DNA of 64,000 bases from Thermoanaerobaculia bacterium (GTDB lineage Bacteria; Acidobacteriota; Thermoanaerobaculia; Gp7-AA8), in the NCBI GenBank assembly GCA_017883205.1, contig JADGNZ010000005.1:30989-94988 (forward strand). Direction: 5' to 3'. Position numbers and translations under genes: made by a program. Shown in pieces: positions 14,600-53,275 of the stretch; within the stretch, counting starts at the first letter, position 1, and the number at the start of each line of letters is the position of its first letter. The notes below the pieces were generated by a model. That model made no database searches and was not told the origin of the DNA. It saw only the letters and a program-made list of their open reading frames with translations.

Positions 14600-14629
14600 T
14601 CAGCGGTTCAAATCCGCTCAACGGCTCCA
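14600..14629 (+). other. tRNA-like 3' fragment: T-arm (AGCGG-TTCAAAT-CCGCT) + 7-nt acceptor 3' strand (CAACGGC) + discriminator + CCA; no convincing complete cloverleaf upstream
   Basis: GGTTCAAATCC T-loop consensus with perfect 5-bp T-stem, followed by CAACGGC-T-CCA at 14619-14629. Attempts to fold a full class I or class II tRNA from 14537/14554 fail in the D and anticodon arms. Confidence 0.3.
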
Positions 14630-14798
14630 ATTCAGATCAACAACTTAGAACTGGCTGCGTCGCAACACTCAGCGGGAAAGCGTTCGCGATTCCGCATTTC
14701 GCGGCGTCACGAACGGACACGTGGTCAGACATTCCGCTCGATGCAAGCTGTCGTCACTTTCGGTTTCGACCTGACCCCTTCCTTTGCCGCTCCTTTCT

Positions 14799-17700: not shown

Positions 17701-20700
17701 GTAGCGCTCGCGACGGTTGGTGTGGACAGCGAGATCGTTGCGCCAGAGCAGTATGCGCCGGTGTTCGACGCCGTCGGCGTTGCGGGGATGGGATTGACGA
17801 CGACGCTGGTCGTGCCGGCCGCCGAGGTGCAGCCGGAAACGGTCACGGTGACGGAGTACGTTCCGGCATCGGCGGTGGTGGCGCTCGCGTGCGTGGGGTT
17901 TTGGAGCGCTGATGTGAAGCCGTTCGGGCCGGTCCAGGCGTAGGTCGCGCCGGCGACCGTCGGAGTGGAGAGAGAAATCGTAGAGCCGGCGCAGTACGGG
18001 CCGCCGTTCGACGCCGTCGGTGTGGCGGGAATGGGGTTGATCGGAACTGTGGTCGAGTTTGTGGCCTGACAGGCGTTGGGTGCCACGATCGACAGAGTCA
18101 GTGTGACGTTGCCGGATGCGCCGGCTGTGTACGAGATCGACTGCGACGTAGTGCTGCCCTGAATGGTGCCATTCGTGATCGACCACGCATACGATGTCGC
18201 GCCAGCCGGACCACTGGCCGTGTTGCCGCTCGATGCCGAGCAAACCTGCGCGGGCGCCGGCGTGATGGACGCGGTCGTAGTGCTGCAGTCGCTGTCCGCA
18301 TAACACGCGGTGACGTCATTCAAGGCCGGCGTCACGGCCGTGCTCGTCGTCGTCAGGTACGCTTTGTATTGAACGTAGCGCTTGTTGTAGAACTGCGTCA
18401 GCGACGCCGGTGACGTGGTGAAGAAGGTCGCCGCGGTTCCGTCCGGACCGACAAAGCTGAACGGGCCGCTCACCGAGTTGGAGCCGGCAGCCTGGAAACG
18501 CAACGTCGTGTTCGCCGGCGTGGTGGCCGTCCAGGAGAACGACGACCATATCGGAGTCAGCCCGGCGGCGGGGTTCGCGTCTTTGGTGCCGGAAATGAGG
18601 TTGCCCGAAAGCGAGAAGCCGACGTTCATATAGGAGATGAAGACGACGTCGTTGGATTGCCCAGTGGCGTTCGAGCAGGAGGAAGTGCTGCACACCTGGC
18701 GTCTGCCGCCGGTGAGACCGTTGCCGTCACTTGTCAGTACCGCCTGCGTTCCGGTACGGGCAGACGCCAACTTGAGAACAAAACCGTACTGGGTGCCGGC
18801 GGTCAGTGTCGGTGGAGTCGCGAACGTGAAGGTCATGAAACCGCCGGAGCCGCTGGAGGATCCGGCAATCGTCGATGACGCGAGCAGTGCGGGCGCGGTC
18901 ATGAGGATGTTGCCTGCACTGGTCGTTCTGGCCTCGATGGTGAGGTTCGGATTCGCCCCCGAGCAGGTGGCACAGAAGATGTTGACGTCGATCCGCTTCA
19001 ACGTGCCCGTCACGGCGGGCGTAAAGGTCTGAGCGGCAAACGAGGTGTTGCTGAACCCGACGCCGTTGGTGGTGTAGTTCGTCGTAATCTGGTCAACAGT
19101 GTCAGGACTGGCCAGAATGACGTTGCCAGCGCTCGTCGTCAGGTCGACGTTCGTCGGAACACCCGTCTGGAAGTCGGTCTGGCTCGTATCGGTCAGGCAC
19201 GCGCTGGTCGCAGCCGTGGCTAGCGAGAAGTTCGTCGTCGTGGTGCCACCGTCTGTGATGACGATGTTCGATGCAGAGCCTGTGACGTATCCGGGAAAGC
19301 TGGCGGTGATTAACGGGTACGTTCCCGCAGGAATGTTCGCGAACGAGTACGCGCCGGAACCGTTCGTCGTTGCCGACCGTGATCCGAATTGGACCGTCGC
19401 GCCACTGATGGCAGCGCCGCCCACCGTGGCAGTGACGGTTCCCGAGACTGTGCCACCGGCACCAACCGGGATGCAGGAAGGAAACGTGAACGAGCCGACA
19501 CGCGTAAGAAAGTTCAGGCCGTTCGCCGCGTAGTACTCGTTGGTGTACCAGAAGGTGCAGCCGTTGGGATCGAGCGACATAGCGCTGTAGTCGCCCCAGC
19601 GGATACACGACGTGCCGCAGTTGCCGCTCTGGGAGGCAGTGCCCTGGAACATCAACTGTTCGGTCTGAGTGATGCTGTTTGCCGCGTCACCGGCGAGCCG
19701 GCCGGCGTACTTCATCCCCGGATTGGTTGTGGCGTTCGAGGTCGTGTAGCCGATGGCCATGTTGCCGGCGCGGTCGACCGCGGCGCTCGGCATGTACCGG
19801 TATACGGTGGTGTCCGGGCTGTACGTCCAGCTCTGGGTCGTGTTGGCGGCTACAGTTCCGCCGGTCACGTTGATCTGGTAGTAGCGGACGGCGGATTGTG
19901 TGGATGTCAGATTCGTCGTCGGATTGCCGGCGCCGACGGTGTGACTGTTCCACAGCGACTCCACGCCTCCAATATTCGAATACTGGTTCTGCACCATCAG
20001 GCGTGGATAAAGCGTATCGAGGAAGTTTGCCGGAGTCGGCGCTGTCGTAACGCCTGTCGTCCGGGCGAACTGCTCCCACCAGAATGCCATCGTCGAATCG
20101 AACGGCCCCGTGACGCTCGAAGCAGAGGGGTGGTTCCAATCGACGTGGAACTTCCATATCTGAACCGAGTTGAGGAAGTTGAACACGGACGCGAAGTAGT
20201 TGGGAGTGCCAGCCGGTGGAGTACCGGTCTGTAGCCGCGCATTCGCAGGAAGCACCGTGAATTGGTCGGATGGGAGATTGAACGAGACCGACTGGATGTT
20301 CGCCGCGCCCGCATACATCTGTGCCTTGTTGAATGCATAGAGGCGCGAGTTCTGAAACGAGCCTGCCGCGGCATAGTCGAACATGTTGACCGACATGTAG
20401 AGACCGTCCGGCCAGATGCCCAACTTCGGGTAGTCGCCGAGACCGCCGGTAGTGTTGATCGAGTAGTAGTTCCAGCCGCCGCTGACCGGATCGCCAGTCA
20501 TCGAAACAGCGAAACACTGGAACGAGCCCGGGGGATTGATGACGTTGTTGGAGCCGTCGAGCTTGAAGGCGAAGTCCGAAATGACCCAGCGATCCTCGAA
20601 CGAATCGTAGAGGACCACGGGATCGCCGAAGTTGTCGGTGTCGCAGAGATTGCCGAAGTTTCCCTGGCTCATGAATGTGTCGAACGTAAATGCCGCCATG

Positions 20701-21456
20701 CGGAAGCCGTCGGACTTGCGGTAGATGCCGATCGAGGTGTTGATCGTCTGGATGTAGTAAGTGGGACCGACGTCACCATTGGGGTCCGGCGGATGTCCTG
20801 CACCCCAGTTCGCGAAGTCGAGTCCATCGAACGTGTTCAGCGGCGCGGGAGCGGGAGCGTTGGCCAGTGCACGCGGACCTGCCATCGCCGCCACCGGGTT
20901 ATTCGACTGGATCGTCGGCCCGGTCTCCATCGGCTGCGGAATGACAGAAGGCGCTTCGCGCTCCGGCCGTTCCTTCTTCGTCGGTGGCGTCGACGGCAGC
21001 GTGCGCAGGTCGAATACCGTGCCCGAGGCCTTCTCCAGCTTCAGCTCGGACGGAGGACCGACCGGGCCGGGCGCGGGCCTCGCCGCTAAAGGCGTTACGC
21101 TGCCGGTCGAAGTCGCCTCCTTCCGCTCGCGGTTCTCGCGGGAGGCCGAAACCGCAGGATCCTTCTCGACGGACAGCGGTCGGGGGACGTTTCTGTGCAG
21201 CGCCTGCCAAAGGTTGCTTTGACAAGCGACAGATGCGGGCATCGCGGTTTTCGCGTGTTTCTTCGCGAACACAACCGCCGGATCGGTCTTCGCGGTTCTT
21301 GCGCTTGCGATCTGTTCAGGTGACGAGATTCCCCGGCAGTCGGGTAGATCAGGTTTCGCGCTGCGTTGCGCATGATTCGAATCCCCGTTTGCGGTCCCGA
21401 CCAGACCGATGACGAGGACTGCTCCGATGACGATGCGTTTCATACGGCGTTTCATG
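14799..21456 (-). CDS. 2218-aa secreted/cell-surface repeat protein: signal peptide, unknown N-terminal domain (~1000 aa), carboxypeptidase-regulatory-like beta-sandwich, 7 tandem 81-aa Ig-like repeats (YAWTGPNGFTS...GTYSVTVTVSGCTSAAG), 3 tandem ~85-aa related repeats, Fn3 domain, 3 short C-terminal repeats (..TIKAVHVTELRTAL..)
   Basis: Long ORF. N-terminus MKRRMKRIVIGAVLVIGLVGTANG is a classic signal peptide, so the start is moved to ATG 21456 rather than the track's 21545. Repeat architecture read directly from the translation. CarbPepD_reg-like segment 'GTVSGTVTATVGGAAISGATVQFGSRSATTNGSGAYSFANIPAGTYPL'. Confidence 0.85.
16330..18030. repeat. Seven tandem ~243-bp near-identical coding repeats (Ig-like modules) inside the 2218-aa gene; boundaries approximate
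   Basis: The 26-mer gtgaagccgttcggaccggtccaggc (reverse complement encodes AWTGPNGFT) recurs at 16456, 16699, 16942, 17185, 17428, 17671 and 17914 with exact 243-bp period. Confidence 0.8.
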
Positions 21457-21721
21457 GTCGATCCTCGTTGCATTGGATTAGTCGGATCTGACACAGACGG
21501 TGTGGTTCTGCGGTGCAGTTTGTCTTCGCGTCGTGCCGGCGGCAAAGCCTGCAGAGTTCTGACAACGAGTTTGTCCCGGTCGTCACCAGAAAGTTATTCC
21601 AGCAACAATGGTCGCAGCACGACCTGTTGTCAATGTGATGATTGAGGCGAACTGCATTGGCACGGAGAGCAAGCCTCAGCGCTCTCTGCGACTCTGTGGT
21701 TGGGGGACCCTGAGTAAGTAC

Positions 21722-23860
21722 TCACGCTTGTTTGATCGCCGCCAGCACTCGCTCCGGCGTCATTGGCAGGCGGTACATCCGCACGCCGGTTGCGTCGAAC
21801 ACCGCATTGGCGATCACGGCGCCCATGGGCACGATGGCCGGCTCGCCGCCGCCTTGTGGCGCGAGGTCGTCATTCTTGATCAGCACCGTCTCGATGTGCG
21901 GCGCGACTGCGGCGAAACGCGGCAGCTCGTAGGTGTCGAAGTTCTTGTCAAGGATGTCGCCGCCGTTGAACTTCAGCTCCTCGCTCAGCACGTAGCCGAG
22001 GCCCATGTTGACGCAGCCGGACATCTGCATCTTCGCGCCCCATGGGTTGATGACCAGCCCCATGTCCTGTGCAGCGACGACACGCTTCACGTTGATCGCG
22101 CCCGTCTTCCGATCGACCGCGACTTCGGCGGCGATCGCGCAGTAGGTGCCGACGTCGAGAGCGACGGCGATGGCGCGCCCCTGCCCCGATGGCCCTGCGC
22201 CCGCTTTCCATCCGAACGCATCGGCTGCCGCCTTCAGTACGCGGCGCAGCCGTTCGTCCGACGCATTGCGCAGGCGGAACTCGAGCGGATCGATCTTCGA
22301 CGCGGCGGCCATGATGTCGATCTGCGACTCGCGGGCGAAGACATTCGGCCCCGCGCCTGGAGCACGCCACGGCCCGGTAGCGAACGGATGGACATTCTCG
22401 CCCCCTGAACGCCGGCCGAGGTACGTTTTTACGCGGACGTTCGGTACGTCGTACAGAACCTCGGACGAGCCGTTCCCGGCGGCGTAAACGTGGTAGTCCC
22501 ACATCGAAATCTTCCCGGCGTCGTCGACGGTCGAGTTGATTTTCACCACCGAGGCGGGGCCGAAAGTGTCGAAGAAAAACTCCTCGGCCCGCGTCCACAC
22601 GACGGCTACCGGCTTGCCGGTGATCTTCGCCAGTTGGGTAGCCTCGACGCCTTGCTCGGTGGGACTCTTCCCGCCGAAACCGCCGCCGACAAACGGCGTG
22701 ATGACGCGCACGCTCTTCTCCTCGAGGCCGAGTACGTTCGCGATGCGTGTGCGCGCACCGAACGGGCTCTGCGTCGATGCCCACACCGTCATCTTCCCGT
22801 CCTTCCACTCCGCGAGCGCGGTGTGCGGCTCCATCGGGGCATGGGCGACGTAACCGGTGCGGAACGTCGACTGGAAGACGCGGGTGCCCGCGGCGGTGCT
22901 GGTGACGTCGCCGTGCGACGTTACCGCCTCGCCGTCACCGCCGGTCTTTACGAAGTAGCCGGCGACCGATTCGGTGTCGAACGCGGCGGTAGGCCGATCC
23001 CACTCGGCCTTGATCAGCGCCAGCGCTTCATGGGCGCGCTCGGGATCACCATGTAGCACGGCGACAAGGTCGTCGTGCTCGACGACCGTCACGCCGCTCA
23101 TGGCCTTCGCCTTCGAGGTGTCGAGCGACTTGCGCGTTGCCCCGTGCATCGGCGGGCGGAGAATGCGGGCATAGAGCATGCCTGGTACTCGGATGTCGCC
23201 CGCGTACTTCGCGCGGCCGGTCACCTTCTCGTGAGCGTCCATCCGCTTCACCGGCGTTCCGATGGCCTTGAATTGCTTGACCGTGCGCAGCACGGCCTTC
23301 TCGCCGACGAGCCGCGCGATCTGTTTCCCCTTCGCCAGCTCGCCGTACGTGACCTTCTGCGAACCGTTCGACACCACACCGTTCTCGACGACGAGCTGCT
23401 CTTTCGGGCTCCCGAGCTTCTCTGATGCCAGCTTCATCAGCACAGCCCGCGCCTCGGCCGCCGCTGCGCGCACTGCCGGGCCGAACATCCGCGTCGACTG
23501 CGAGCCCCACGTGCCGGCGTCCCACGGACACAGATCGGTGTCGCCCATGACCATGGTGATCGAATCGAGCGAGACACAGAGCTCCTCGGCCGCCATCTGA
23601 GCCAGCGACGTGTGTACGCCCTGACCCATCTCGATTTTTCCGGAGAAGAGCGTCACGCCTCCGCTCTCATCGATCCGCAGATAGGCGTTGAGATCCTCGG
23701 GATAGCCGCGCCGCTGCGCGAGTAGATCGGCCGGCTTCGACGTCATCAGCACGACGATGCCGCCGCCGAGGAGCTTGCAGAAAAGGCGGCGATCGAGCCC
23801 GGTGGCGATTCCGGGCGAAGACGTTTCGGCCGGAGGGAAGGGCCACGACTGCGCTGTCAT
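21722..23860 (-). CDS. Molybdopterin-dependent oxidoreductase, large (MoCo-binding) subunit of the xanthine dehydrogenase / aldehyde oxidase family (IorB/CoxL-like), Tat signal
   Basis: 712-aa ORF. N-terminal twin-arginine motif 'DRRLFCKLLGGGIVVL'. Family-typical segments (GVTLFSGKIEMGQG, GQGVHTSLAQMAAEEL, FGGKS...). Overlaps the small-subunit gene by 4 nt. Confidence 0.9.
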   Translation of the reverse strand: MTAQSWPFPPAETSSPGIATGLDRRLFCKLLGGGIVVLMTSKPADLLAQRRGYPEDLNAYLRIDESGGVTLFSGKIEMGQGVHTSLAQMAAEELCVSLDSITMVMGDTDLCPWDAGTWGSQSTRMFGPAVRAAAAEARAVLMKLASEKLGSPKEQLVVENGVVSNGSQKVTYGELAKGKQIARLVGEKAVLRTVKQFKAIGTPVKRMDAHEKVTGRAKYAGDIRVPGMLYARILRPPMHGATRKSLDTSKAKAMSGVTVVEHDDLVAVLHGDPERAHEALALIKAEWDRPTAAFDTESVAGYFVKTGGDGEAVTSHGDVTSTAAGTRVFQSTFRTGYVAHAPMEPHTALAEWKDGKMTVWASTQSPFGARTRIANVLGLEEKSVRVITPFVGGGFGGKSPTEQGVEATQLAKITGKPVAVVWTRAEEFFFDTFGPASVVKINSTVDDAGKISMWDYHVYAAGNGSSEVLYDVPNVRVKTYLGRRSGGENVHPFATGPWRAPGAGPNVFARESQIDIMAAASKIDPLEFRLRNASDERLRRVLKAAADAFGWKAGAGPSGQGRAIAVALDVGTYCAIAAEVAVDRKTGAINVKRVVAAQDMGLVINPWGAKMQMSGCVNMGLGYVLSEELKFNGGDILDKNFDTYELPRFAAVAPHIETVLIKNDDLAPQGGGEPAIVPMGAVIANAVFDATGVRMYRLPMTPERVLAAIKQA

Positions 23861-24330
23861 CGGGCACCTCCAGTCTTCGACGCGTCTTCGATCGCGGCGA
23901 TGATTCCCTGATGCGCCCCGCAGCGGCAGAGGTTCCCGTTCATCTCATCGACGATGGCGCTGCGCGAGGGGTGTGGCTGCTTCTGCAGCAAGGCCCAGGC
24001 GTTCATGAGCATCCCTGAGGTGCAGTAGCCGCACTGGAACCCACCGTGCTCGATGAAGGCCTGTTGCAGCGGATGCAGCTTTCCGCCGTGCTCGAGCCCT
24101 TCGACGGTGACCACGTTCTTGTTTTCAACGTCGGCCAACGAAGTCTGGCAGGACCTCACTGCAGTGCCGTTGACGGCGACCGTGCAGGCGCCGCACAGGC
24201 CCTCGCCGCAGCCGAATTTCGTGCCAGTGAGGTTGAGATCGGTGCGGATGACCCAGAGCAGTGTGCGCCGGTCGTCGGTGTCGAGGGTTACGGGCTGGCC
24301 GTTCAGGTGGAACCGGATGCTCTTCTTCAC
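23857..24330 (-). CDS. (2Fe-2S)-binding small subunit of the Mo-hydroxylase (IorA/CoxS-like)
   Basis: Two Cys clusters: plant-ferredoxin-like CGEGLCGAC and the second 2Fe-2S motif GFQCGYCTSG...CRCG. Start trimmed from the track's 24408 to GTG 24330, which has a GGAGG Shine-Dalgarno 7 nt upstream (seen on the minus strand at 24336-24340) and a family-typical N-terminus VKKSIRFHLNG. Confidence 0.85.
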   Translation of the reverse strand: MKKSIRFHLNGQPVTLDTDDRRTLLWVIRTDLNLTGTKFGCGEGLCGACTVAVNGTAVRSCQTSLADVENKNVVTVEGLEHGGKLHPLQQAFIEHGGFQCGYCTSGMLMNAWALLQKQPHPSRSAIVDEMNGNLCRCGAHQGIIAAIEDASKTGGAR

Positions 24331-24470
24331 GCGAGCCTCCTGCGTTAGGGGGTCAATGGTATCGCATGAGCTGCGAACTTTTCCTTCGCGGAGGTCACTC
24401 CAACGCACGGGTTCCCGTCCCGCTCGATGGGGCGCATACTAGCTCCTATGTCATCGCCGAACCGAACCTC

Positions 24471-25022
24471 ATGACACCCGGCGAGTACCTCGATCTCGAA
24501 CGGAAATCAGAGATCCGAAGTGAGTACATCGCCGGCCGCATGTTCGCGATGTCGGGAGCGAGCCGGCGACACGGTCTGATCGCCGGTAACCTGTTTCGGG
24601 AGATCAGCTCCCAGATGCGCGGCAGAGCATGCGAGGCGCATATTAACGACCTGCGCGTCAAAGTCAGCCCGACTGGTATGTACACGTATCCAGACATCGT
24701 CGCCCTCTGCGGCGAGGCGCAACTCGAAGACGAGCACTTCGACACGCTTCTCAATCCGACAGTGATCGTAGATGTGCTTTTCGATTCGACTGAGGCGTAT
24801 GACCGTGGGGAGAAGTTCGCGCACTACCGACGTCTCGACACGCTGCGCGAGTATGTCCTCGTCTCTCAGGACAAGATCCGCATCGAACGCTTCCGGCGCG
24901 AGGGAGATGAGTGGACTCTCTCCGAGGTCAGCGGCCCGGACGCAACTCTGCACCTAGAATCGATCGACTGCCACGTCGCCGTCGGCGCGATCTACGAAAA
25001 AGTCGATTTCGGTCCTAGCTGA
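24471..25022 (+). CDS. Uma2-family (DUF820) putative endonuclease
   Basis: Characteristic N-terminus MTPGEYLDLERKSEIRSEYIAGRMFAMSGASRRHGLIAGNL... and ~184-aa size. Start chosen at in-frame ATG 24471; the track ORF begins at 24261 in Arg/Gly-rich sequence. Confidence 0.8.
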   Translation: MTPGEYLDLERKSEIRSEYIAGRMFAMSGASRRHGLIAGNLFREISSQMRGRACEAHINDLRVKVSPTGMYTYPDIVALCGEAQLEDEHFDTLLNPTVIVDVLFDSTEAYDRGEKFAHYRRLDTLREYVLVSQDKIRIERFRREGDEWTLSEVSGPDATLHLESIDCHVAVGAIYEKVDFGPS

Positions 25023-25189
25023 GAATCGTGGGCCCAGGCCACCGTGCGGCGGTGGCTCAGAAATCCATCGAGGATCGCATGCGGATCTGTCCGTCTGATT
25101 GGGTCTCTCCCCCAAACACATGACGCTATTCCCTGCGGTTGCGGGATGGAGCTTCGCGGCGCGGAAGATCACTGTCGGCGCATGCAAAA

Positions 25190-26590
25190 GGAGAAGTCAT
25201 GAGCATGCATCGCCGGGGACTCGGATTCCTCTGTCTTTTATCGGCGCTTCTCATCTTCATCAAAGTCCCTTCAGCGAGTGCGATTCCGGCATTTGCTCGT
25301 AAGTACGAGACATCCTGCCAGACGTGCCACACCGGCTTTCCGAAGCTGAATCCGTTCGGCGAAGCTTTCCGGCTCAATGGCTATCGGATGCCGAAGGAGA
25401 CCGAGGAGCAGATCAAGATCAAGCCGGTCAGCCTTGGCGCCGAGGCGTACAAGAAGATGTGGCCGAGGGCGATCTATCCAAGCGATCTGCCCGGACAGGT
25501 GCCGCTTGCGCTGAACGTGAAGATGGCCAGCGTCTACGCATCGTCACTCGATGACAGCGGTCATACGATCGTGCACAACGACTTTCAGTTTCCGCAGGAA
25601 GCGAATCTCTTCGCCGGCGGCACGCTCGGCGAGCACATGAGCTTTCTCGGCGAGGTCACCTGGTCCGAGAACCCGGACGGCAGCAGCTCCACCGAGATCG
25701 AGCGCTTGCATCTGCAGGCGGGATCGTTCATCGGGCCCGAGCACCTGTTCAACATCAAGATCGGCAAGTTCGCAGCCGACCTCGACGACGGGTTCCACGA
25801 GATGTGGCTGTCGACCGACAACGGGGTCGACAATCTGTTCACCTTCAATCCCATCGGATTGCACGGGGGGACGGGGCTCTCCGATGCGGGCGCCATCAGC
25901 CTTCCGGTGAACGTGAAAGGAATCGAGGCGTACGGGGTAGCCAAGCACCGCTGGTTCTATACCGTGGGCGTCGTCAACGGCCTCGGCCCCTCCGCCAGCG
26001 GCAATGTCGATGGCAATGCCAGCAAGGACGTTTACGCCCGAGTCGATTACAAGTTCGGCGGAATGGGGCTCGACGGCGACTCCACAGGTGTGACGCTGCC
26101 GCCGGAGAACTGGAGGGAGCGGTCGTTCCGCGTCGGTGTTCTCGGGTATCACGGCAACGGTTCCGGGGTCGATTTCCCGCTCACCGACGATACCGGTGCC
26201 ACCGTGAATGTTCAGGATCGCACCTTCAACCGCGCCGGGATCTTCGCCTCCTGGTACTACGACGATCTCAATGTCTTCGGCGTGGCCATGAGCGGGCGGG
26301 ATCGCCTCGACACGTTCGCGGCGGATGGATCTCTCTCCAATGCACAGAGCTTCCGCTACAACTCCTGGTTCGTTCAATCGGATTACGTGATTCTGCCGCC
26401 GCTTCAGGCATCGCTTCGGTATGAAAGCGTCACGCCGCCGGGCGCGGCGGGAGTCAAGTCTCTTCGCGCGCTCAATGCCAGCATGGCCTACTTCTTCTAC
26501 GCCAACGTGAAGACGATGGTCGAGTACCGGCGCGACCTGAGCGAGTCGAAGAACTACCAGCTCTCGACCATCCTTCGCTTCGCCTTCTGA
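25190..26590 (+). CDS. Secreted protein with N-terminal c-type heme-binding motif (CQTCH) fused to a predicted outer-membrane beta-barrel (ends ...QLSTILRFAF); 'heme-porin'
   Basis: AAGGAG Shine-Dalgarno at 25179-25184, ATG at 25190. Signal peptide MSMHRRGLGFLCLLSALLIFIKVPSASA. Single CxxCH at residues ~40-44 of the mature protein. Alternating amphipathic strands, Gly/aromatic-rich, and a C-terminal Phe as in OMP beta-barrels. The next gene starts 25 nt downstream with its own SD. Confidence 0.75.
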   Translation, partial: GEVMSMHRRGLGFLCLLSALLIFIKVPSASAIPAFARKYETSCQTCHTGFPKLNPFGEAFRLNGYRMPKETEEQIKIKPVSLGAEAYKKMWPRAIYPSDLPGQVPLALNVKMASVYASSLDDSGHTIVHNDFQFPQEANLFAGGTLGEHMSFLGEVTWSENPDGSSSTEIERLHLQAGSFIGPEHLFNIKIGKFAADLDDGFHEMWLSTDNGVDNLFTFNPIGLHGGTGLSDAGAISLPVNVKGIEAYGVAKHRWFYTVGVVNGLGPSASGNVDGNASKDVYARVDYKFGGMGLDGDSTGVTLPPENWRERSFRVGVLGYHGNGSGVDFPLTDDTGATVNVQDRTFNRAGIFASWYYDDLNVFGVAMSGRDRLDTFAADGSLSNAQSFRYNSWFVQSDYVILPPLQASLRYESVTPPGAAGVKSLRALNASMAYFFYANVKTMVEYRRDLSESKNYQLSTILRFAF

Positions 26591-26603
26591 CCACATTCCC
26601 AAC

Positions 26604-26609
26604 AAGGAG
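26604..26609 (+). promoter_or_regulatory. Shine-Dalgarno AAGGAG for the cupredoxin gene (7-nt spacing to ATG 26616)
   Basis: Read directly: aacAAGGAGatactcATG. Confidence 0.7.
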
Positions 26610-26615
26610 ATACTC

Positions 26616-27191
26616 ATGAAAGCTGTCATCGCATCACTCATCGCACTCCTGGCCCTGCCGCTCATTGCCGGCGACATTCACGGCAAAGTCACCGCGCATA
26701 GCGTTCGCAATTCCGCCGATGCCATCGTCTACGTCGACAAGATCGCGGGGAAGACGTTCCCGCCACCCGCGGCGCACGCGAAGATCGACCAGAAGAACAT
26801 GCAGTTCTTGCCGCACGTGCTGGCGGTTGTGGCCGGCACGACGGTCGACTTCCTCAACTCCGACGCCGTTCTCCACAACGTCTTCTCGCCCGACGCCTGC
26901 GCCGATCACTTCAACCTCGGAACGTGGCCGCAAGGGCAGTCGAAGAGCTTCACCTTCAAGAAGGAGTGCTTCGCGTCGCTCCTGTGCAAAGTCCATTCGG
27001 AGATGGAGGGCTTCGTAGCCGTGCTGCCGACGCCGTACTTCGCCGTAACGGCTGCCGACGGCTCGTACGACATCAAAGACGTCCCCGACGGGACATACAC
27101 CGTAAAGGTCTGGCACCCGAAGCTGAAGGCGGCCACCAAGAGCGTCACCGTGAAGGGCGCGACCGAGGCGAGCTTCGAGATCGCGAAGTGA
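26616..27191 (+). CDS. Cupredoxin (type-1 blue copper, amicyanin-like C-x2-H-x2-M site) fused to a carboxypeptidase-regulatory-like beta-sandwich; secreted
   Basis: Signal peptide MKAVIASLIALLALPLIAG. Candidate copper ligands His (VLHNVF), Cys-His-Met in 'LLCKVHSEMEG'. C-terminal 'TAADGSYDIKDVPDGTYTVKVWHPKL' is CarbPepD_reg-like. Confidence 0.75.
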   Translation: MKAVIASLIALLALPLIAGDIHGKVTAHSVRNSADAIVYVDKIAGKTFPPPAAHAKIDQKNMQFLPHVLAVVAGTTVDFLNSDAVLHNVFSPDACADHFNLGTWPQGQSKSFTFKKECFASLLCKVHSEMEGFVAVLPTPYFAVTAADGSYDIKDVPDGTYTVKVWHPKLKAATKSVTVKGATEASFEIAK

Positions 27192-27194
27192 GCC

Positions 27195-29030
27195 ATGAGC
27201 GGCGCCGAGCACAATCAGGAGTGGCTGGAGCGTAACTTCCCGTGCAAGCAGGCTTGTCCTGTCCACACGGAAGCCGGGAAGTACGTGACCCTGATTGCGC
27301 AGGGGCGCTTTCGCGAGGCGTACGCCGTCGCCCGCAGACCGAATCCGCTTGCGTCGATCTGTGGGCGCATCTGCGCCGCTCCCTGCGAAGCGGTCTGCCG
27401 CCGCGGTGAGATCGATGCGCCGATCTCGATTCGCGCCCTCAAGCGGTTCGTCACCGAGAAGTTCGGCGTGGAGAGCATGCTCGACTTCTCGGTGCTCACC
27501 GAGATCTACGGCGACCGAACCAATCGCTACCCGGAGAAGGTGGCCATCATCGGCTCCGGTCCTGCCGGCCTGGCATGCGCGCACGACCTGGCGCTCCTCG
27601 GGTATCACGCCACGATCTTCGAAGCCGCTCCCGTCGCCGGCGGGATGCTGCGCCTCGGCGTTCCCGAATACCGCCTGCCGCGCGCCCTGATTCAGCTCGA
27701 GATCAACGCCATCCTCTCGCTCGGCGTGGAGCTGAAGACGAACGTCCGGATCGGCAAAGACCTGACGCTCTCGCAACTGAAGGCCGACGGATACGCGGCG
27801 ATCTTCCTCGGCGTCGGCTCGATGAAGAGCCGCGAGCTGGCCATCGAGGGACTCGAGCTCGACGGCGTGCTCCGCGGCATCGACTACCTCCTCAACATCA
27901 ACCTCGGCTACAAGGTCGAGATGGGGAAGAAGGTCATCGTGATCGGAGGCGGCAACGTCGCCCTCGACGTGGCCCGCACCGCTGCACGCGGGGGCGAGCA
28001 GACGAACATGCAACGCAACCTCTCGATCGTGCAGGCGATGGATGTGGCGCGCAGTGCGGTCCGCTTCGGCGCGCGCGACGTGACCGTCTGCTGCCTGGAG
28101 TCGGAGAGCGAGATGCCCGCCGCGAAGGATGAAGTTGAGGAGGCCTCGACCGAAGGAATCCGCTTCGCCTACCGGCTTGGTCCCAAACGGATCGTCGGCG
28201 CAAACGGCGTGACCACGGGCGTCGAGTTTCTGCGCGTATCGCGCGTCTTCGATGAGACCGGGCGCTTCGATCCGAAGTACACCGCAGGCTCGGAGACGGT
28301 CATCGAAGCCGACACCGTGATCGTCGCCATCGGCCAGACCGGCGACTTCGCCTTCCTGCAGCCGGAGGACGGTGTGGAGACGCGTGGCGGGCGGATCATC
28401 ATCGACCCCGACTCGCTGGCCACCACCGCGCCGGGCATCTTCGCCGGCGGCGACGCCGCGTTCGGGCCGCGCATCGCCATCAGCGCGGTGGCCGATGGCA
28501 AGCGCGCCGCGAAGTCGATCGACACCTTGCTGCGAGGAGTGGCGCGTCCGAGCGACGACACCTCCGTCGAAGTCATCATCGAGCCTCGCTGGGATCGCGA
28601 GCTCGACTTCGAAGGGATTCCGCGGCAGAAGCCTCCATCCCGGCCGCTTGCGCGGCGAATCGGCATCGCCGAGGTCGAGGAGTGCTTCAGCGAGCACACG
28701 GCGCGGCGCGAGGGAAGCCGCTGTCTCCGCTGCTGGACCAACACGATCTTCGATCAGAACGCCGCCGCGGGAACCGAGTGCATCCTCTGCGGCGGATGCC
28801 AGGACATCTGTCCGGAGCATTGCATCGCCATCGTCCCCGCGGCGCGCGTGATCTCGCTGCCGTCCGATGCCATCGAGCTCGCGCCGATCCTTCTCGAGAA
28901 CCGCTGGGTGGGCTCGGTCATGCTCAAGAACGAAGAGGTCTGCATTCGCTGCGGACTCTGCGCGGTGCGCTGTCCCGTGGGCACGATCACCATGCGCAGC
29001 TTCCACCGAAAGGAGAGCGACGTTGCCTGA
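27195..29030 (+). CDS. GltD-like FAD/NAD(P)H-dependent oxidoreductase with N-terminal Cys cluster and C-terminal 2x[4Fe-4S] ferredoxin domain (glutamate-synthase small-subunit / DPD subunit-A family)
   Basis: Two Rossmann GxGxxG motifs (VAIIGSGPAGLACAH; VIVIGGGNVALDVA). N-terminal C-x-x-x-C / CGRICAAPCEAVC. C-terminal CILCGGCQDICP and CIRCGLCAVRCP. Starts 4 nt after the cupredoxin stop. Confidence 0.9.
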   Translation: MSGAEHNQEWLERNFPCKQACPVHTEAGKYVTLIAQGRFREAYAVARRPNPLASICGRICAAPCEAVCRRGEIDAPISIRALKRFVTEKFGVESMLDFSVLTEIYGDRTNRYPEKVAIIGSGPAGLACAHDLALLGYHATIFEAAPVAGGMLRLGVPEYRLPRALIQLEINAILSLGVELKTNVRIGKDLTLSQLKADGYAAIFLGVGSMKSRELAIEGLELDGVLRGIDYLLNINLGYKVEMGKKVIVIGGGNVALDVARTAARGGEQTNMQRNLSIVQAMDVARSAVRFGARDVTVCCLESESEMPAAKDEVEEASTEGIRFAYRLGPKRIVGANGVTTGVEFLRVSRVFDETGRFDPKYTAGSETVIEADTVIVAIGQTGDFAFLQPEDGVETRGGRIIIDPDSLATTAPGIFAGGDAAFGPRIAISAVADGKRAAKSIDTLLRGVARPSDDTSVEVIIEPRWDRELDFEGIPRQKPPSRPLARRIGIAEVEECFSEHTARREGSRCLRCWTNTIFDQNAAAGTECILCGGCQDICPEHCIAIVPAARVISLPSDAIELAPILLENRWVGSVMLKNEEVCIRCGLCAVRCPVGTITMRSFHRKESDVA

Positions 29031-29040
29031 ACTGGAAGGA

Positions 29041-29520
29041 ATGTTCGGTCCCGAGGTTGAGGAGGAGGAGACGCCAGGCCGTCGCGACTTCTTCACGCAG
29101 ATCGGCGTTGGCGCCTGCGCGGTCGTTGCCGTCGCCTCCGGCATCGTGACGCTCGACTATCTCGAGCCGAAAGTGCTTTTCGAGCCGTCGACGACGTACG
29201 TAGCCGGCTCGCCACTCGACTTCGCTCCCGGCGTGGTCGTCCCCAATCAGGAGAAGAAAGCGTTCGTGATCGGTGCGGCCAACGGCATCTATGCGCTCTC
29301 CGCCGTCTGCACGCACCTCGGCTGCATCACCCGATACAAGTCCGATGAAAGCGCGATTGCCTGCCCCTGCCATGGCAGCCGCTTCGATCTCGAAGGGAAC
29401 GTTACACACGGACCAGCCCCGCGCCCGCTGCCGTGGCTCGACGTCAGCCAGGACGCGAATGGCAATCTCGTCGTCGACACCGGCATCGTCATCGCGCGCG
29501 GAAAGGTGTTCCGGCCATGA
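29041..29520 (+). CDS. Rieske [2Fe-2S] protein of a cytochrome bc-type complex, Tat-like RRDFF leader
   Basis: Box I CTHLGC and box II CPCHGS present. SD GGAAGGA precedes ATG 29041. The track ORF starts earlier, at 28867, in Arg/Ser-rich junk overlapping the previous gene. Confidence 0.9.
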
Positions 29521-30254
29521 CCGTCGGGGAGTGGGTTCGCAACACGTCTGTCTACCGGTCGGTGATCCGGCACGGCATCGCGCCGACGAATCGCAACCGG
29601 TCGTTGATCATCTTCGAGAACCTTTTCCTCCACGTCCATCCCGTGAAGGTGCGGGAGAAGACCCTTCGTTTCACGCACACCTTCTGGCTCGGCGGCATCA
29701 CGCTGGCCAGCACGATCATCCTCGTGGCCACGGGCATCCTGCTGATGTTCTATTACCACCCGTCCGTGCCGCAGGCGTACCGCGACATGAAGGAGCTGCA
29801 GTACGTCGTCGACAACGGCGTCTTCCTGCGCAACCTCCACCGCTGGTCGGCGCACCTGATGGTGTTCAGCGCGTTCCTGCACATGCTGCGCGTCTTCTAC
29901 CACCGCGCCTACCGTCCCCCCCGCCAGTTCAACTGGGTTGTCGGCGTGGTGCTGCTACTCCTGACTTTGTTGCTGTCATACACGGGCTACCTGCTGCCGT
30001 GGGACCAGCTCGCGTTCTGGGGTGTCTCGGTCGGAACGAACATGGCCAAGCAGGCACCGCTGGTCGGCGAGCGCGTCCGCTTCTTCCTCCTCGGCGGCAA
30101 CATCGTCTCGGAGAACGCGCTGCTCCGGTTCTACGTGCTGCACTGCGTCGTCCTGCCGGTAGCGCTTCTGCTCCTCATCTCCGTTCACATCTGGCGTGTG
30201 CGAAAGGACGGGGGAGTGCAGGGACCGCCTGACGACGAGAGGAGATCGCTGTGA
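29517..30254 (+). CDS. Cytochrome b, N-terminal (heme-binding, b6-like) half
   Basis: ATGA overlap with the Rieske stop. Conserved cytochrome-b segments ([47 protein letters not shown]) including the paired His ligands. Confidence 0.9.
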
Positions 30255-30952
30255 CGACACCGATCGAGATCATCGAATCTGACGATCCGCTTGCCAATCC
30301 GTGGCGCGTCGCGCTCGTGCGTCCGGACGGGCGCCCGGCTGTTCACGAGACCGACGAGCGCTACGTCATGACGTTTCCACACCTGATCCTGCGCGAGATC
30401 ATCCTCTTTCAGGTCGTGGTAATCGTCCTCTCGCTTGCGGCGATCCTCTTCAACGCGCCGCTGGAGAGCATCGCTAATCCGGTGGAGACGCCGAATCCGG
30501 CCAAGGCGCCCTGGTACTTCCTCGGTCTTCAGGAATTGCTGCACTACTTTCCGCCGGTCGTGGCCGGAGTGGTGTTGCCGGCGCTTGTCGGCATCTGTCT
30601 GGTGGTCATTCCGTACTGGCGCGTCAATCTCGAAGGAGCACCGCTGTGGGCGGCGCCGTCGCGATGGAAGGCTCCGGCGATCGCGGCGTCGGTCATCCTG
30701 CTTTCGATCCTCTTCGCCGCGTTCAGTTGCTGGCCGATCGTCATACCGACCGTCATCATCGGCGTGGCCATGTTCGCGGCCCATGCCGTGCGCCCGGGCG
30801 GCCGCTGGCAGTGGTTGTGGGGCGTCACGCTGCCGGAATGGATCATGACGTGGTTCGTCGTGATCGCTGTGGTGTTGACCGTGATCGGAACGTTCTTCCG
30901 CGGGCCAGGCTGGAGTTGGGTCTGGCCGTGGATGGACGCACCCCGAGGGTGA
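30251..30952 (+). CDS. Cytochrome b C-terminal half / subunit-IV-like (PEWY-type loop '[13 protein letters not shown]')
   Basis: Overlaps the previous stop by 4 nt. Polytopic membrane protein with a PEWY-equivalent motif, as in split b6/SUIV cytochromes. Confidence 0.85.
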
Positions 30953-30957
30953 GGAGG
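30951..30957 (+). promoter_or_regulatory. Shine-Dalgarno GAGGAGG for the octaheme cytochrome gene (GTG start 30963)
   Basis: ggtGAGGAGGccgatGTG read directly. Confidence 0.6.
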
Positions 30958-30962
30958 CCGAT

Positions 30963-32990
30963 GTGACATTGCGACGACTCTTCGCCCTTTCCAGCCTGGC
31001 CTTTCTCATCGTCCTGGCTTTCTCGCCGGTGAAGAACGCGCTGCGGCCGTACCGCGCATTGCAGCGCCAGTTTCGAGTCGTGGGGATTGCCAGGGCGTCG
31101 AGCGGGAAGGCGGCGGAGGTGTATTCGTCCCGTCCGATCGCGATCCAGCAGGTCTGGATTCCGGAACTGAACAATCGCGTCGATCGATGCACGACCTGTC
31201 ACCTCGGCGTTGTGGACGCCGCCATGACCAGCGCGCCGGAGCCGTTCCGCACGCACCCGCCGACCTTCCACACGCCCCGCGACGTTCAGCGTTTCGGATG
31301 CACGGCCTGCCACGGCGGCGAGGGGCTGGCCACCGACGAAGAGGACGCGCACGGAACCTCGGCAGACGCGACATCTCCGATCCTTCCTACGGAATTCATC
31401 GAGGCGGGATGCGGGCGCTGTCATGACGCCGAGGCCGTTCGCGACGCGCCCACGCTCTCGGCCGGCCGCGCGCTGATGACGAAGTCGAACTGCTTCGCCT
31501 GCCACAAAGCCCGCGGCCACGAAGACTTCCGCGCCGACGCCCCGCCACTCGAGACGCTGTCGATGAAGACCGGTGCTGAATGGCTGCGGCGCTGGCTCAG
31601 CAATCCGAAGGCGGTCGACGCCAACGCCACGATGCCGAACTTCCAGCTCACCGGCGACGACATCAAGGTTCTGTCGCACTATCTCTTCGCGCGTCCCGTC
31701 CCGCCGCAATTGCAGCACGCCATCGAGCTGGCGGGAGCGGAGCCGAACGGCGATTCCGCCCGCGGCAAGACCCTCTTTGCCGAGTCACGATGCATCTCCT
31801 GCCACACGGTCGGTGGCAAGGGGAACGGTTCCGCTCCGGAGCTGGGAACGATCGCGTCGCGCGCTTCGCGCGGATGGCTGATCGCCTTCGTCCGCGATCC
31901 GCATGCGTTCTATCCGCAGACGAAGATGCCGCGGTACTCATTCACAGACGCGGACGTGCGCGACATCGTGGCCTGGTTCGAGGACGAGTTGAAAGACTTC
32001 GACGCGCCCGCGGACATCCTGACGCCCTTGCGCGTCAATCAGACGTTCGCCGAAAAAGGGGAGAAGCTGTTCAAGAGCGCAGGCTGCTTCGCCTGCCACA
32101 GCGGTGTGAAGGAAGGCGAGCGATTCGGACCCGATCTCTACGGCATCGGAGAGCTCAAGGCCACATCGCTCGACTTCGGCAAGCGCTCGGACCTGCCGCG
32201 AACGCTCGCGGCGTGGCTCGATGCGAAGATCAGCACACCACGATCCTTCGCCTCGGGTCTGAAGATGCCCACCTTCGCCTTCGACGCCGCGCAGAAGCGC
32301 GCCATCGTCACGGCGCTGCTGGCCATTCCCGCCATTCCCGTGCCGGATGCCTATCGCTCAACGCCGGTGCAGCAGGCCGCCATCGTTCCGGCCGGTCCGG
32401 TCGGCGAGATCATGACCCGCTATCGCTGCCTCTCATGCCATCAGATCGGCAGAGCCGGCGGCGACATCTCGACCGCGCCACTGACGTTTGAAGGAAGCAA
32501 GGTCAATCACGACTGGCTGGTCAACTATCTCGCAGTGCCGTATTCGATCCGGCCGATCATCGCCGAGCGGATGCCGGTCCTGAAGGTCTCGAAAGAAGAG
32601 GCCGGGAAGTTGGCGGATGCGATCGCGATGATCTATGTCGATCCATCGACGCCTGACGACCCGTTCCTGGGCCGGCCCGCATCCGATCATGATGCGGCCG
32701 AGGGAGAACGGCTTTACACGACGTTCGGCTGCCGCTCCTGTCACATCATCGGCAAGACCGGAGGGTATTACGGGCCGCCGTTGACGGAGACGAAGGCACG
32801 CCTGAAGCCGGGCTGGGTGTTCCGCTTCCTGCAGAACCCGCAGCGCTGGCGCGCCGACGTCCGCTGCCCCAACTACGGCATGACCGATACCGACGCGTTG
32901 CGTCTGACCGCGTATCTCGAGACGCTGGCCGAGGCGCCGGCGGTGCCTGTGGCGGCGGCCGCGCCAGCGCGGAAGGAGGCCGCGAAATGA
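30963..32990 (+). CDS. Octaheme c-type cytochrome (8 CxxCH), N-terminal membrane anchor/signal
   Basis: CxxCH motifs CTTCH, CTACH, CGRCH, CFACH, CISCH, CFACH, CLSCH, CRSCH counted in the translation. Hydrophobic N-terminus LFALSSLAFLIVLAFSPV. Confidence 0.9.
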   Translation: MTLRRLFALSSLAFLIVLAFSPVKNALRPYRALQRQFRVVGIARASSGKAAEVYSSRPIAIQQVWIPELNNRVDRCTTCHLGVVDAAMTSAPEPFRTHPPTFHTPRDVQRFGCTACHGGEGLATDEEDAHGTSADATSPILPTEFIEAGCGRCHDAEAVRDAPTLSAGRALMTKSNCFACHKARGHEDFRADAPPLETLSMKTGAEWLRRWLSNPKAVDANATMPNFQLTGDDIKVLSHYLFARPVPPQLQHAIELAGAEPNGDSARGKTLFAESRCISCHTVGGKGNGSAPELGTIASRASRGWLIAFVRDPHAFYPQTKMPRYSFTDADVRDIVAWFEDELKDFDAPADILTPLRVNQTFAEKGEKLFKSAGCFACHSGVKEGERFGPDLYGIGELKATSLDFGKRSDLPRTLAAWLDAKISTPRSFASGLKMPTFAFDAAQKRAIVTALLAIPAIPVPDAYRSTPVQQAAIVPAGPVGEIMTRYRCLSCHQIGRAGGDISTAPLTFEGSKVNHDWLVNYLAVPYSIRPIIAERMPVLKVSKEEAGKLADAIAMIYVDPSTPDDPFLGRPASDHDAAEGERLYTTFGCRSCHIIGKTGGYYGPPLTETKARLKPGWVFRFLQNPQRWRADVRCPNYGMTDTDALRLTAYLETLAEAPAVPVAAAAPARKEAAK

Positions 32991-33379
32991 GACGACGCAG
33001 TCTGCTGATCGTGATCGCGCTTGTTCTCGTTGCGACGTCGTGCCGCCGCGCGAATCGCCCCGCGTCCGCCGTCGCCATCGCGCGGCCCACGCAGTACGAA
33101 TTGCGGCTCGGCAAAGAGGTCTACCAGAGCTACTGCATAGGATGCCACGGCGACAGCGGCGCCGGCGACGGGTTCAACGCATTCAATCTCGATCCGCATC
33201 CACGGGATCTGAGCGATCCCGTGTTTCAGAAGGGGAAGTCGAACGCCGAGCTCGCCGACGCCATCCGCCGCGGCGGCGCCGGTGTCGGACTGACCAGCCT
33301 CATGCCGCCATGGGGTCACACGCTCGACGACCGGCACATCGACGCCGTCGTCGTGTACATCCGTTCGATGAAGAGATAG
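32987..33379 (+). CDS. Monoheme class-I cytochrome c (CIGCH), lipoprotein-type signal (LVATSC)
   Basis: 130 aa, single CxxCH, conserved Met-containing distal region (LMPPWG). 4-nt overlap with the octaheme gene. Confidence 0.85.
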   Translation: MRRRSLLIVIALVLVATSCRRANRPASAVAIARPTQYELRLGKEVYQSYCIGCHGDSGAGDGFNAFNLDPHPRDLSDPVFQKGKSNAELADAIRRGGAGVGLTSLMPPWGHTLDDRHIDAVVVYIRSMKR

Positions 33380-33512: not shown

Positions 33513-34226
33513 TTGATCGCGGCGATATTCGTCACGATCGGAGACTGGCGGCGCCGTTTGAACCTGGCAGACCATGATGAAGAGCTGGCGACACTCTTTC
33601 AGTCGCTCGAACATTCGCCCGATGCCGTCTTCGTGACGGACCGCACGAACCACATCGTCTTCTGGAACGAAGCCGCGCGCCACATGCTCGGGTTCACCGC
33701 CGACGAGGCCATCGGCGGCCACTGCGATCGTCTCCTCGGCGGCAGCGACCCGTTCGGCAACCGCTATTGCACCGACGAGTGTCCGATCATGCGCATCGCC
33801 AACCGCGGCGAGATCGTGCGCAATTTCTCGCTCAATCTGCGCACGAAGGAGAGCCAGCACGTCGTCACACAAGTGAGCGTCCTCCAGCTTCGTGCCGGCG
33901 GTCCCGACGACTACTACCTCGTGCACATGCTTCGCGCGAACGCGGAGCCGGCAGAGCAACGCCCGATCAACGAACCGGTGAGCTCTTCCCGTCCGCGGCT
34001 CGTGGCCGCGCGCGAATCGATCGATGTCCGTGCGCGCAAACTGACCGGCCGCGAAGTCGAGGTGCTCGGAATGCTCGCCGCCGGCCGCACCACTCCCGAG
34101 ATCGCCGAGCGCCTGCACATCGCCCAGCTCACCGCCCGCAGCCACATCCAGAACATTCTGGAGAAGCTCGAAGTGCACTCCAAAGTGGAAGCGGTGGCAT
34201 TCGCGTTTCAGAAGAACCTGATTTGA
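33513..34226 (+). CDS. PAS-domain + LuxR-type HTH transcriptional regulator
   Basis: PAS-like segment (SPDAVFVTDRTNHIVFWNEAARHMLGF...). C-terminal LuxR/GerE HTH (LTGREVEVLGMLAAGRTTPEIAERLHIAQLTARSHIQNILEKL). Start uncertain (TTG at 33513 per the track). Confidence 0.8.
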   Translation: MIAAIFVTIGDWRRRLNLADHDEELATLFQSLEHSPDAVFVTDRTNHIVFWNEAARHMLGFTADEAIGGHCDRLLGGSDPFGNRYCTDECPIMRIANRGEIVRNFSLNLRTKESQHVVTQVSVLQLRAGGPDDYYLVHMLRANAEPAEQRPINEPVSSSRPRLVAARESIDVRARKLTGREVEVLGMLAAGRTTPEIAERLHIAQLTARSHIQNILEKLEVHSKVEAVAFAFQKNLI

Positions 34227-42369: not shown

Positions 42370-42371
42370 GG

Positions 42372-43802: not shown

Positions 43803-43803
43803 G

Positions 43804-53249: not shown

Positions 53250-53275
53250 GTGAAAAGCACCCCAAGTGCCGACTC

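Follow-up and report, generated by a model that had tools for sequence, protein, structure and literature searches.

A gene at positions 25199 to 26590 on the forward strand of a 64,000-nucleotide stretch of DNA from a Thermoanaerobaculia bacterium (contig JADGNZ010000005.1; the whole stretch is called the window below) was analyzed. This cyc2-like gene is an unannotated member of a large, mainly acidobacterial subfamily of Cyc2, and its product is very probably a Cyc2-family cytochrome-porin, i.e., a protein in which a cytochrome domain with one haem-binding site is fused to a porin. The best explanation for the gene together with its neighbours, which we consider somewhat better than an even bet, is that a Cyc2-type protein passes electrons from Fe(II) into the electron transport chain encoded by its operon.

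The gene lies within an open reading frame (ORF) that extends from 25139 to 26590 on the forward strand. The probable start is the ATG at position 25199, which leads to a protein of 463 amino acids, and the spacing between the AAAGGAGAAG ribosome-binding site and this ATG is 9 nt. A scan for promoters and terminators was uninformative, with fewer matches than in shuffled sequence. The following features were assigned to the gene:

Positions 25188-25197, forward strand: Shine-Dalgarno-like sequence AAAGGAGAAG, read from the sequence, 5' of the ATG at 25199.
Positions 25199-26590, forward strand: very probable Cyc2-family fused monohaem cytochrome c and 16-strand outer-membrane porin, 463 amino acids.
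Positions 25199-25282, forward strand: signal peptide predicted from sequence features, residues 1-28, with cleavage expected between A-S-A and I29.
Positions 25280-25348, forward strand: Cyc2 signature A28-I-P-A-F-A-R-K-Y36 ... C40-Q-T-C-H44 ... P48-K-L50.
Positions 25316-25330, forward strand: haem-binding motif CQTCH, residues 40-44, the sole CxxCH in the protein.
Positions 25394-25498, forward strand: subfamily-specific extension of the cytochrome domain, residues ~66-100, seen as a gap in the BLASTP and hhalign alignments.
Positions 25505-26587, forward strand: predicted 16-strand beta-barrel, residues 103-463, with an end (...LRFAF) like the beta-signal of outer-membrane proteins.

Read by eye, the signal peptide consists of the basic n-region MSMHRRG, a hydrophobic core, and A26-S-A28, and the two alanines were conserved to 72% (A26) and 95% (A28) in the homologue alignment. 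In the AlphaFold2 (AF2) model this region was rendered as a low-confidence helix comprising residues 6-18. The protein has three cysteines in all and ends with ...LRFAF. Based on its own amino acid composition, a CxxCH would be expected by chance only about 5e-4 times per protein. A comparison of the protein with Pfam, NCBIfam, and the sequences of the PDB did not yield a match.

Keffer et al. (2021, PMC8406198) describe the Cyc2 family as 'fused cytochrome-porin' proteins, in which a signal peptide and one CXXCH are joined to a porin of 16 strands, with OprO/OprP as modelling templates. The family is defined by a haem that is bound covalently to the barrel protein, as in Cyc2 of Acidithiobacillus ferrooxidans, Cyt572 of Leptospirillum, and Cyc2PV-1 of Mariprofundus ferrooxydans (PMC8406198; McAllister et al. 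2020, PMC7029218). Its signature is the motif AXPXFAR[Q/K][T/Y] just upstream of the CXXCH and the motif PXL just downstream of it; in addition, a length of at least 365 amino acids and the presence of the haem motif have been used to recognize members (PMC8406198). Homology was accepted for blastp values of 1e-5 or lower to cluster queries, or for a match to the FeGenie hidden Markov model (Keffer et al. 2021, PMC8406198). Cyc2 genes have been reported earlier in metagenome-assembled genomes (MAGs) of Acidobacteriota, and in another study Leptospirillum Cyt572 fell into a dense group of acidobacterial and Nitrospira homologues.

The cyc2-like protein has a length of 463 amino acids, a signal peptide can be read from its sequence, and its single N-terminal CXXCH, the CQTCH at residues 40-44, is invariant in 130 homologues. 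The upstream motif is present as A28-I-P-A-F-A-R-K-Y36-E-T-S-C40, and three residues lie between it and C40; Keffer et al. word the offset as '5 amino acids upstream', and the counting used there may differ from the spacing given here. The downstream motif is present in H44-T-G-F-P48-K-L50. It was also observed that the Cyc2 motif begins right at the predicted signal-peptidase site (A-x-A followed by I-P-x-F-A-R). The likeness to the Cyc2 family thus comprises the signal peptide, the N-terminal CxxCH, both motifs, a length of about 400-500 amino acids, the OprP/OprO-like 16-strand barrel, and the position at the head of a respiratory operon. MtrCAB, MtoAB, and PioAB are also outer-membrane conduits that pair a beta-barrel with c-type haem. 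However, a separate porin of ~26 strands around a separate decahaem cytochrome, as in MtrAB, MtoAB, and PioAB, is not what the cyc2-like gene encodes.

Next, homologous proteins from Proteobacteria were compared. A tblastn search of plasmid records (7.3 Gb) retrieved megaplasmid genes of Ralstonia, Caballeronia, Paraburkholderia, Ideonella, and Methylocystis with E values from 2e-5 to 3e-4. Ralstonia belongs to the over-sampled genera with Cyc2 homologues (PMC8406198). BLASTP of the cyc2-like protein against the Ralstonia Cyc2-type protein gave a value of 2e-12, and hhalign of the family alignment (130 sequences) against the Ralstonia, Ideonella, and Methylocystis proteins gave a probability of 99.3% and an E value of 1.3e-20, with an alignment that spans the cytochrome domain and the first strands; the comparators at the sequence level were thus proteobacterial Cyc2-type proteins, and characterized Cyc2 was likened by its published description. 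The motif register of the Ralstonia protein, AVPAFARQTGMACMACHVSFPEL, is identical to that of the cyc2-like protein, AIPAFARKYETSCQTCHTGFPKL. The barrel was too divergent for a sequence alignment with the proteobacterial proteins, which is expected for Cyc2 because the identities between clusters are below 20% (Keffer et al.). Compared with the proteins of Ralstonia, Ideonella, and Methylocystis, the cyc2-like protein has a 31-residue insertion (residues ~66-100), which contains the near-invariant residues G80, P89, and P94.

The proteobacterial genes from Ralstonia solanacearum (pmega, L085), Ideonella dechloratans (L084), and Methylocystis sp. MJC1 (L086) are homologous to the cyc2-like gene, and the encoded proteins likewise have an aromatic C-terminus. 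In contrast, they lack the insertion, they are followed by genes for Cyc1-like c-type cytochromes, and they have neither a cupredoxin nor a bc module. In Ralstonia a gene for a dihaem cytochrome c follows, which is the classic cyc2-cyc1 arrangement; in the three loci (L084, 3965-6049; L085, 3926-5925; L086, 3827-7597) the Cyc2-type gene is followed by one to three c-type cytochrome genes. It is annotated as 'cytochrome C' in Ideonella and as 'hypothetical protein' in Methylocystis, and no annotation is listed in Ralstonia. The acidobacterial subfamily differs from characterized Cyc2 by the extension, by a next gene for a type-1 copper protein instead of the dihaem Cyc1, and by the co-encoded Rieske/cytochrome b and NAD(P) flavoprotein.

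The fold of the protein was predicted with AF2. With an alignment of 35 close homologues, the predicted local distance difference test (pLDDT) was 58.9, and with the diverse alignment of 130 sequences it was 89.9, with a predicted template modelling score of 0.85. In the latter model, a small N-terminal domain made of helices (residues ~29-100, pLDDT 85-96) is followed by 16 long beta-strands between residues 103 and 462, and the 31-residue insertion was placed with high confidence. The best structural matches were OprP (2o4v), OprO (4rjw), and the general porins OmpF, VhChiP, and PorB. The sequence identities to these porins were 9-14%, and, in contrast to the cyc2-like protein, they do not have an N-terminal haem domain. 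OprO and OprP are also the porin templates given for Cyc2 (PMC8406198), and the same 16-strand fold is predicted for the C-terminal part of the cyc2-like protein.

These results bear on several claims of an earlier note on this DNA. It had described a signal peptide, a single CQTCH, and an outer-membrane barrel in one polypeptide, and this description agrees with the sequence and with the 16 strands of the AF2 model (pLDDT 89.9). The note had named a soluble periplasmic fold and homologues without the CxxCH as outcomes that would speak against it; the prediction with 130 sequences gave a barrel, and the CxxCH is invariant in the 130 homologues. Its view that a haem-porin in a single protein is unusual, as known conduits are split into cytochrome and porin, has to be given up, because Cyc2 is already a fused cytochrome-porin with a matching signature (PMC8406198). 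The note had further presumed an outward route of the electrons to the cell surface, opposite to the one known for characterized Cyc2 proteins.

The family of the cyc2-like protein is large. A word-indexed search yielded more than 1469 homologues, and the best 120 of them have identities of 60-91% and no precomputed Pfam domain. Source names, where present among these 120, are all 'hypothetical protein', and where organisms are labelled, they are MAGs of Thermoanaerobaculia or Acidobacteriota. When 1.84 billion cluster representatives (clusters at 50% identity) were searched with a profile, 3688 clusters had E<=1e-3, of which 291 reached E<=1e-30. The names of 10 divergent representatives comprised only 'hypothetical protein' and two Planctomycetota labels. 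Among the best 150 representatives, every full-length protein has a single N-terminal CxxCH within '...IPxFARKYxTSCxTCH...PKL', and the only exceptions are 5'-truncated gene calls. A scan of genomes, with one genome per species, for stretches that match the motif revealed at least 599, and 591 of the 599 listed encode a relative. The best 80 of these at least 599 stretches stem mostly from Thermoanaerobaculia, Holophagae, and Vicinamibacteria. The closest among the matches listed is from the soil MAG 'Thermoanaerobaculia bacterium SMAG_U13202' (L004, 94% identity), and two of the matches listed are from cultured isolates, i.e., Geothrix terrae SG184 (L026) and G. oryzisoli SG189 (L038), which both carry the operon described below.

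Conservation was quantified with the alignment of 130 sequences, which have identities of 29-91%. P30, C40, C43, and H44 are conserved to 100%, and G54 and G189 are also invariant, while P89 and P94 in the insertion are invariant or nearly so. F32, R34, Y36, T38, and T42 are conserved to at least 98%. In the upstream motif the conservation is 91-100% for A28, P30, F32, R34, K35, and Y36, and 86% for A33, and in the downstream motif it is 95% for P48 and 94% for L50. Besides the histidine of the CxxCH, there is no conserved methionine or histidine in the 130 homologues. The distal haem ligand could be the N-terminal amine of the mature protein (cytochrome f has such a ligand), Y36 (98% conserved), or a conserved lysine.

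The genomic context was analyzed next. The proposal of the earlier note that the gene heads a bc-complex operon was corroborated, as it is the first of eight tightly packed genes, including those for a Rieske protein and cytochrome b, that extend from 25199 to 33379 on the forward strand with intergenic distances of -4 to +25 nt. The genes downstream of the cyc2-like gene are:

Positions 26616-27191, forward strand: secreted blue (type-1) copper protein, 191 amino acids, fused at its C-terminus to a CarboxypepD_reg-like domain (Pfam Copper-bind and CarboxypepD_reg).
Positions 27195-29030, forward strand: cytoplasmic FAD/Fe-S flavoprotein that binds NAD(P) and belongs to the GltD/NfnB family, 611 amino acids, with 2x[4Fe-4S] in its C-terminal domain (NCBIfam, Pfam).
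Positions 29041-29520, forward strand: Rieske [2Fe-2S] protein with a twin-arginine (RRDFF) signal, 159 amino acids (Pfam Rieske; equal length in the related locus L001).
Positions 29517-30254, forward strand: cytochrome b, N-terminal (b6-like) part (Pfam Cytochrome_B, 2.5e-42).
Positions 30251-30952, forward strand: membrane protein like the C-terminal part of cytochrome b or subunit IV (Pfam Cytochrom_B_C, borderline at 4e-4; position conserved).
Positions 30963-32990, forward strand: membrane-anchored octahaem cytochrome c with 8 CxxCH, 675 amino acids.
Positions 32987-33379, forward strand: monohaem class-I cytochrome c (CIGCH), 130 amino acids (equivalent gene in the related loci L001 and L003).
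Positions 33513-34226, forward strand: PAS-LuxR (GerE) regulator, here downstream of the operon.

The copper protein has the ligands H87 and C124-x2-H127-x2-M130, which are conserved to 97-100% in 75 homologues. This is the His...Cys-x2-His-x2-Met pattern of type-1 copper sites in a cupredoxin fold, and the Pfam Copper-bind score was 27.7 bits versus a cut-off of 21.2. Comparison with the PDB gave weak matches to amicyanin and plastocyanin. The C-terminal CarboxypepD_reg-like beta-sandwich of the copper protein shows a weak NCBIfam similarity (E 0.008) to a model for an anammox S-layer glycoprotein. The closest solved relatives of the flavoprotein are NfnA, the NfnI large subunit, GltD, and DPD. 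The ATG of cytochrome b overlaps the stop codon of the Rieske gene by 4 nt. The Rieske protein, cytochrome b, a multihaem cytochrome c, and the GltD/NfnB-like Fe-S flavoprotein are thus all encoded in adjacent genes. In most related loci the gene for the PAS-LuxR regulator is located directly upstream of the cyc2-like gene.

The gene order was compared in 83 related loci. In 76 of the 83, the gene immediately downstream of the cyc2-like gene is that for the copper protein; the contig was too short in five and the region was rearranged in two. The 76 loci include distant members with identities of 34-38%, which are labelled Bacteroidales and Deltaproteobacteria. The full set of flavoprotein, Rieske, and cytochrome b genes after the copper gene was present in 44 of the 83 loci. 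Among the 76 loci, the contig ends after the flavoprotein gene in 7 and after the copper-protein gene in 5, and in 20 the copper-protein gene stands alone, with at least 2.5 kb of downstream sequence. Three of these copper-only loci were inspected (L022, L029, L059), and in each of them a protein of ~320 amino acids with two CxxCH is encoded next, ~600-1500 nt downstream of the cyc2-like gene; it looks like an alternative downstream partner in loci without the bc module. A description of a cupredoxin or of an Nfn-like bc complex associated with Cyc2 was not found in the literature searched, and, as this search was incomplete, it may be published. The near-obligate pairing with a type-1 copper/CarboxypepD_reg protein and the frequent pairing with a Rieske/cytochrome b complex that has an Nfn/GltD-like flavoprotein thus appear to be undescribed.

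A mechanism can be proposed for the route of the electrons. After export via Sec, haem would be attached at C40, C43, and H44 of the N-terminal cytochrome domain that is fused to the porin, and dissolved Fe(II) would reach the single haem of the barrel protein and be oxidized there. The electron would then pass from the haem to the product of the next gene, the periplasmic type-1 copper protein, which would be the counterpart of rusticyanin. From the copper protein it could proceed to a terminal oxidase encoded elsewhere or to the Rieske/cytochrome b complex and its two cytochromes c (octahaem and monohaem). The Rieske/cytochrome b-flavoprotein complex would link the chain to the quinone pool and to NAD(P)+, and the Nfn/GltD-like flavoprotein could couple quinone chemistry to the reduction of NAD(P)+ and thereby generate reducing power. 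The analysis itself shows the fused architecture, the invariant haem site, the Cyc2 signature, the predicted porin fold, the homology to proteobacterial Cyc2-type proteins, the conserved copper ligands, and the gene order, whereas haem attachment, outer-membrane location, Fe(II) as substrate, carrier order, and inward flow are inferred. The inward, Fe(II)-oxidizing direction is suggested by analogy to known systems, and we regard it as nearly, but not quite, an even call. Fe(II) oxidation has been shown for Cyc2 members of all three phylogenetic clusters, and all characterized Cyc2 proteins take electrons inward (PMC8406198).

The analogous system is that of A. ferrooxidans, in which electrons pass from the outer-membrane Cyc2 to rusticyanin and then either downhill to the aa3 oxidase or uphill via bc1 to the quinone pool and NAD+ (Quatrini et al. 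2009, PMC2754497). In that species cyc2 is named first among the components of the co-transcribed rus operon, and the genes for the bc1 complex lie in the petI operon together with sdrA1, the gene for an NAD(P)-binding SDR protein (PMC2754497). The window shares with rus plus petI a Cyc2, a blue copper protein, c-type cytochromes, and an NAD(P)-binding protein that is encoded along with a bc complex. In contrast to rus and petI, the elements in the window are united in one operon, and the operon does not contain an oxidase. In addition, the copper protein of the window is amicyanin/plastocyanin-like and fused to a CarboxypepD_reg domain, and the NAD(P) protein is an Fe-S flavoprotein of the Nfn/GltD type, not an SDR. 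The host is probably neutrophilic, judging from the soil MAGs, unlike A. ferrooxidans.

A second system for comparison is found in anammox bacteria, the Rieske/cytochrome b complexes of which have been proposed to make NAD(P)H by bifurcation (10.1101/855817, after Kartal 2013 and de Almeida 2016). In these complexes a Rieske protein, cytochrome b, and a multihaem cytochrome c are reportedly combined with an NAD(P) oxidoreductase subunit similar to GltD. This would be the same set of subunits as in the operon of the window, and the likeness lies at the level of domain types. The anammox complexes are not known to have an associated Cyc2-type outer-membrane protein or cupredoxin.

Several points weigh against an entry of Fe(II) electrons into the operon's chain via the cyc2-like protein. 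The AF2 model represents the protein alone, without haem, the 31-residue insertion is not present in proteobacterial Cyc2, and no conserved methionine or histidine able to serve as distal haem ligand was found in the 130 homologues. Furthermore, electrons in bc complexes normally move from quinol to cytochrome c, and this would favour an outward flow; the operon is present in the Geothrix isolates L026 and L038, and this genus is known for Fe(III) reduction; and homologues of Cyc2 occur in many organisms that are not known to oxidize iron, including relatives of Fe(III) reducers. The latter three points speak for the Cyc2-type protein as an electron outlet, in which electrons from quinol or NAD(P)H would pass through the Rieske/cytochrome b-flavoprotein complex, the cytochromes c, and the copper protein to the haem of the barrel and to a soluble acceptor, e.g., chelated Fe(III) or humic quinones. 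In a variant, an exergonic high-potential branch could drive the reduction of NAD(P)+ by bifurcation, as has been proposed for the anammox complexes, and the flavoprotein belongs to the bifurcating Nfn family. However, every biochemically tested Cyc2 is an Fe(II) oxidase, and type-1 copper proteins usually have high potentials, which would suit the uptake of electrons from Fe(II) better than the reduction of Fe(III) at neutral pH. Moreover, Keffer et al. (PMC8406198) argue that solid Fe(III) minerals are out of reach for a lone haem inside a narrow pore of 16 strands. An outlet is a possible but doubtful alternative.

It is quite unlikely that the protein is a Cyc2-type conduit for another soluble substrate, i.e., Mn(II), reduced humics, or sulfur or iodine species, or that it serves Fe(II) detoxification or redox sensing. 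Many Cyc2-bearing organisms oxidize sulfur or are not known to use iron, a study of the Mn-oxidizing Ca. Manganitrophaceae (PMC9040806) was among the search results for Cyc2 and fused cytochrome-porins, and a PAS-LuxR regulator is conserved beside the operon, but there is no specific support for any one of the alternative substrates. In 44 of 83 loci the gene is closely coupled to an energy-conserving bc complex, and this points to respiration more than to detoxification or sensing. A previously unknown kind of haem-porin, unrelated to known conduits, might be suspected from the lack of matches in Pfam, NCBIfam, and the PDB sequences and from the name 'hypothetical protein' among the best 120 homologues. 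It is, however, very improbable in view of the Cyc2 signature, the profile homology (E 1.3e-20), the OprP-like fold with 16 strands, and the Cyc2 genes in Acidobacteriota MAGs, and it was rejected because the motif and profile evidence place the protein with Cyc2. The reading as a soluble periplasmic cytochrome, or as an ordinary porin with a chance CxxCH, had some basis in the first AF2 run with its shallow alignment (pLDDT 58.9). It was also rejected, as a barrel was predicted and the CxxCH is retained in the homologues, and we regard it as extremely improbable.

Several other features were observed in the window. Upstream of the operon, a pair of genes at 21722-24408 on the reverse strand encodes a molybdenum hydroxylase of the aldehyde oxidase/xanthine dehydrogenase family (large and 2Fe-2S subunits). 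An ORF at 24261-25022 lies between this pair and the operon, and the pair is not syntenic with the operon in related loci. The region 6299-21545 on the reverse strand contains three very large ORFs. Those of 815 and 1731 amino acids had no Pfam match, and that of 2248 amino acids, a probable surface protein, contains repeats of the Ig, PKD, and CarboxypepD_reg types. On the forward strand, the region 35556-45312, in which the AT skew is strongly negative, encodes two HTH_17 plus PTS_EIIA_2 regulators followed by an Mrp-antiporter/complex-I-like module. The module comprises three Proton_antipo_M subunits, a NuoH-like protein, and a fused 30-kDa plus 49-kDa (NuoCD-like) subunit, and it resembles group-4 hydrogenase or Mbx-type complexes. 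The region 51261-63041 on the reverse strand encodes a protein of 763 amino acids in which an eCIS core domain (PF13699, 1.7e-30) is combined with a transglutaminase (TGL) domain, and beside it there are three ORFs of 759-1066 amino acids without a Pfam match.

Fused cytochrome-porins of the Cyc2 family are an established marker of microbial iron oxidation, and the type of protein as such is thus not new. The iron-cycling potential of soil Acidobacteriota is easily missed, because this subfamily escapes Pfam and NCBIfam and is annotated as 'hypothetical'. The near-obligate pairing of the cyc2-like gene with a copper protein and its frequent pairing with a Rieske/cytochrome b complex that carries a flavoprotein suggest a concrete path for the electrons, and this path could explain how neutrophilic organisms with Cyc2 are supplied with NAD(P)H. 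In an unlikely, more far-reaching version, the operon would be a self-contained device of Thermoanaerobaculia, Holophagae (including the cultured Geothrix), and Vicinamibacteria that uses electrons from extracellular Fe(II) together with the proton-motive force or a bifurcating Q-cycle to generate NAD(P)H directly, without recourse to reverse complex I. As cultured Geothrix strains carry the operon, the question of which way the electrons flow is accessible to genetics. If true, an operon leading from Fe(II) to NAD(P)H would make abundant soil Acidobacteriota cryptic iron oxidizers.

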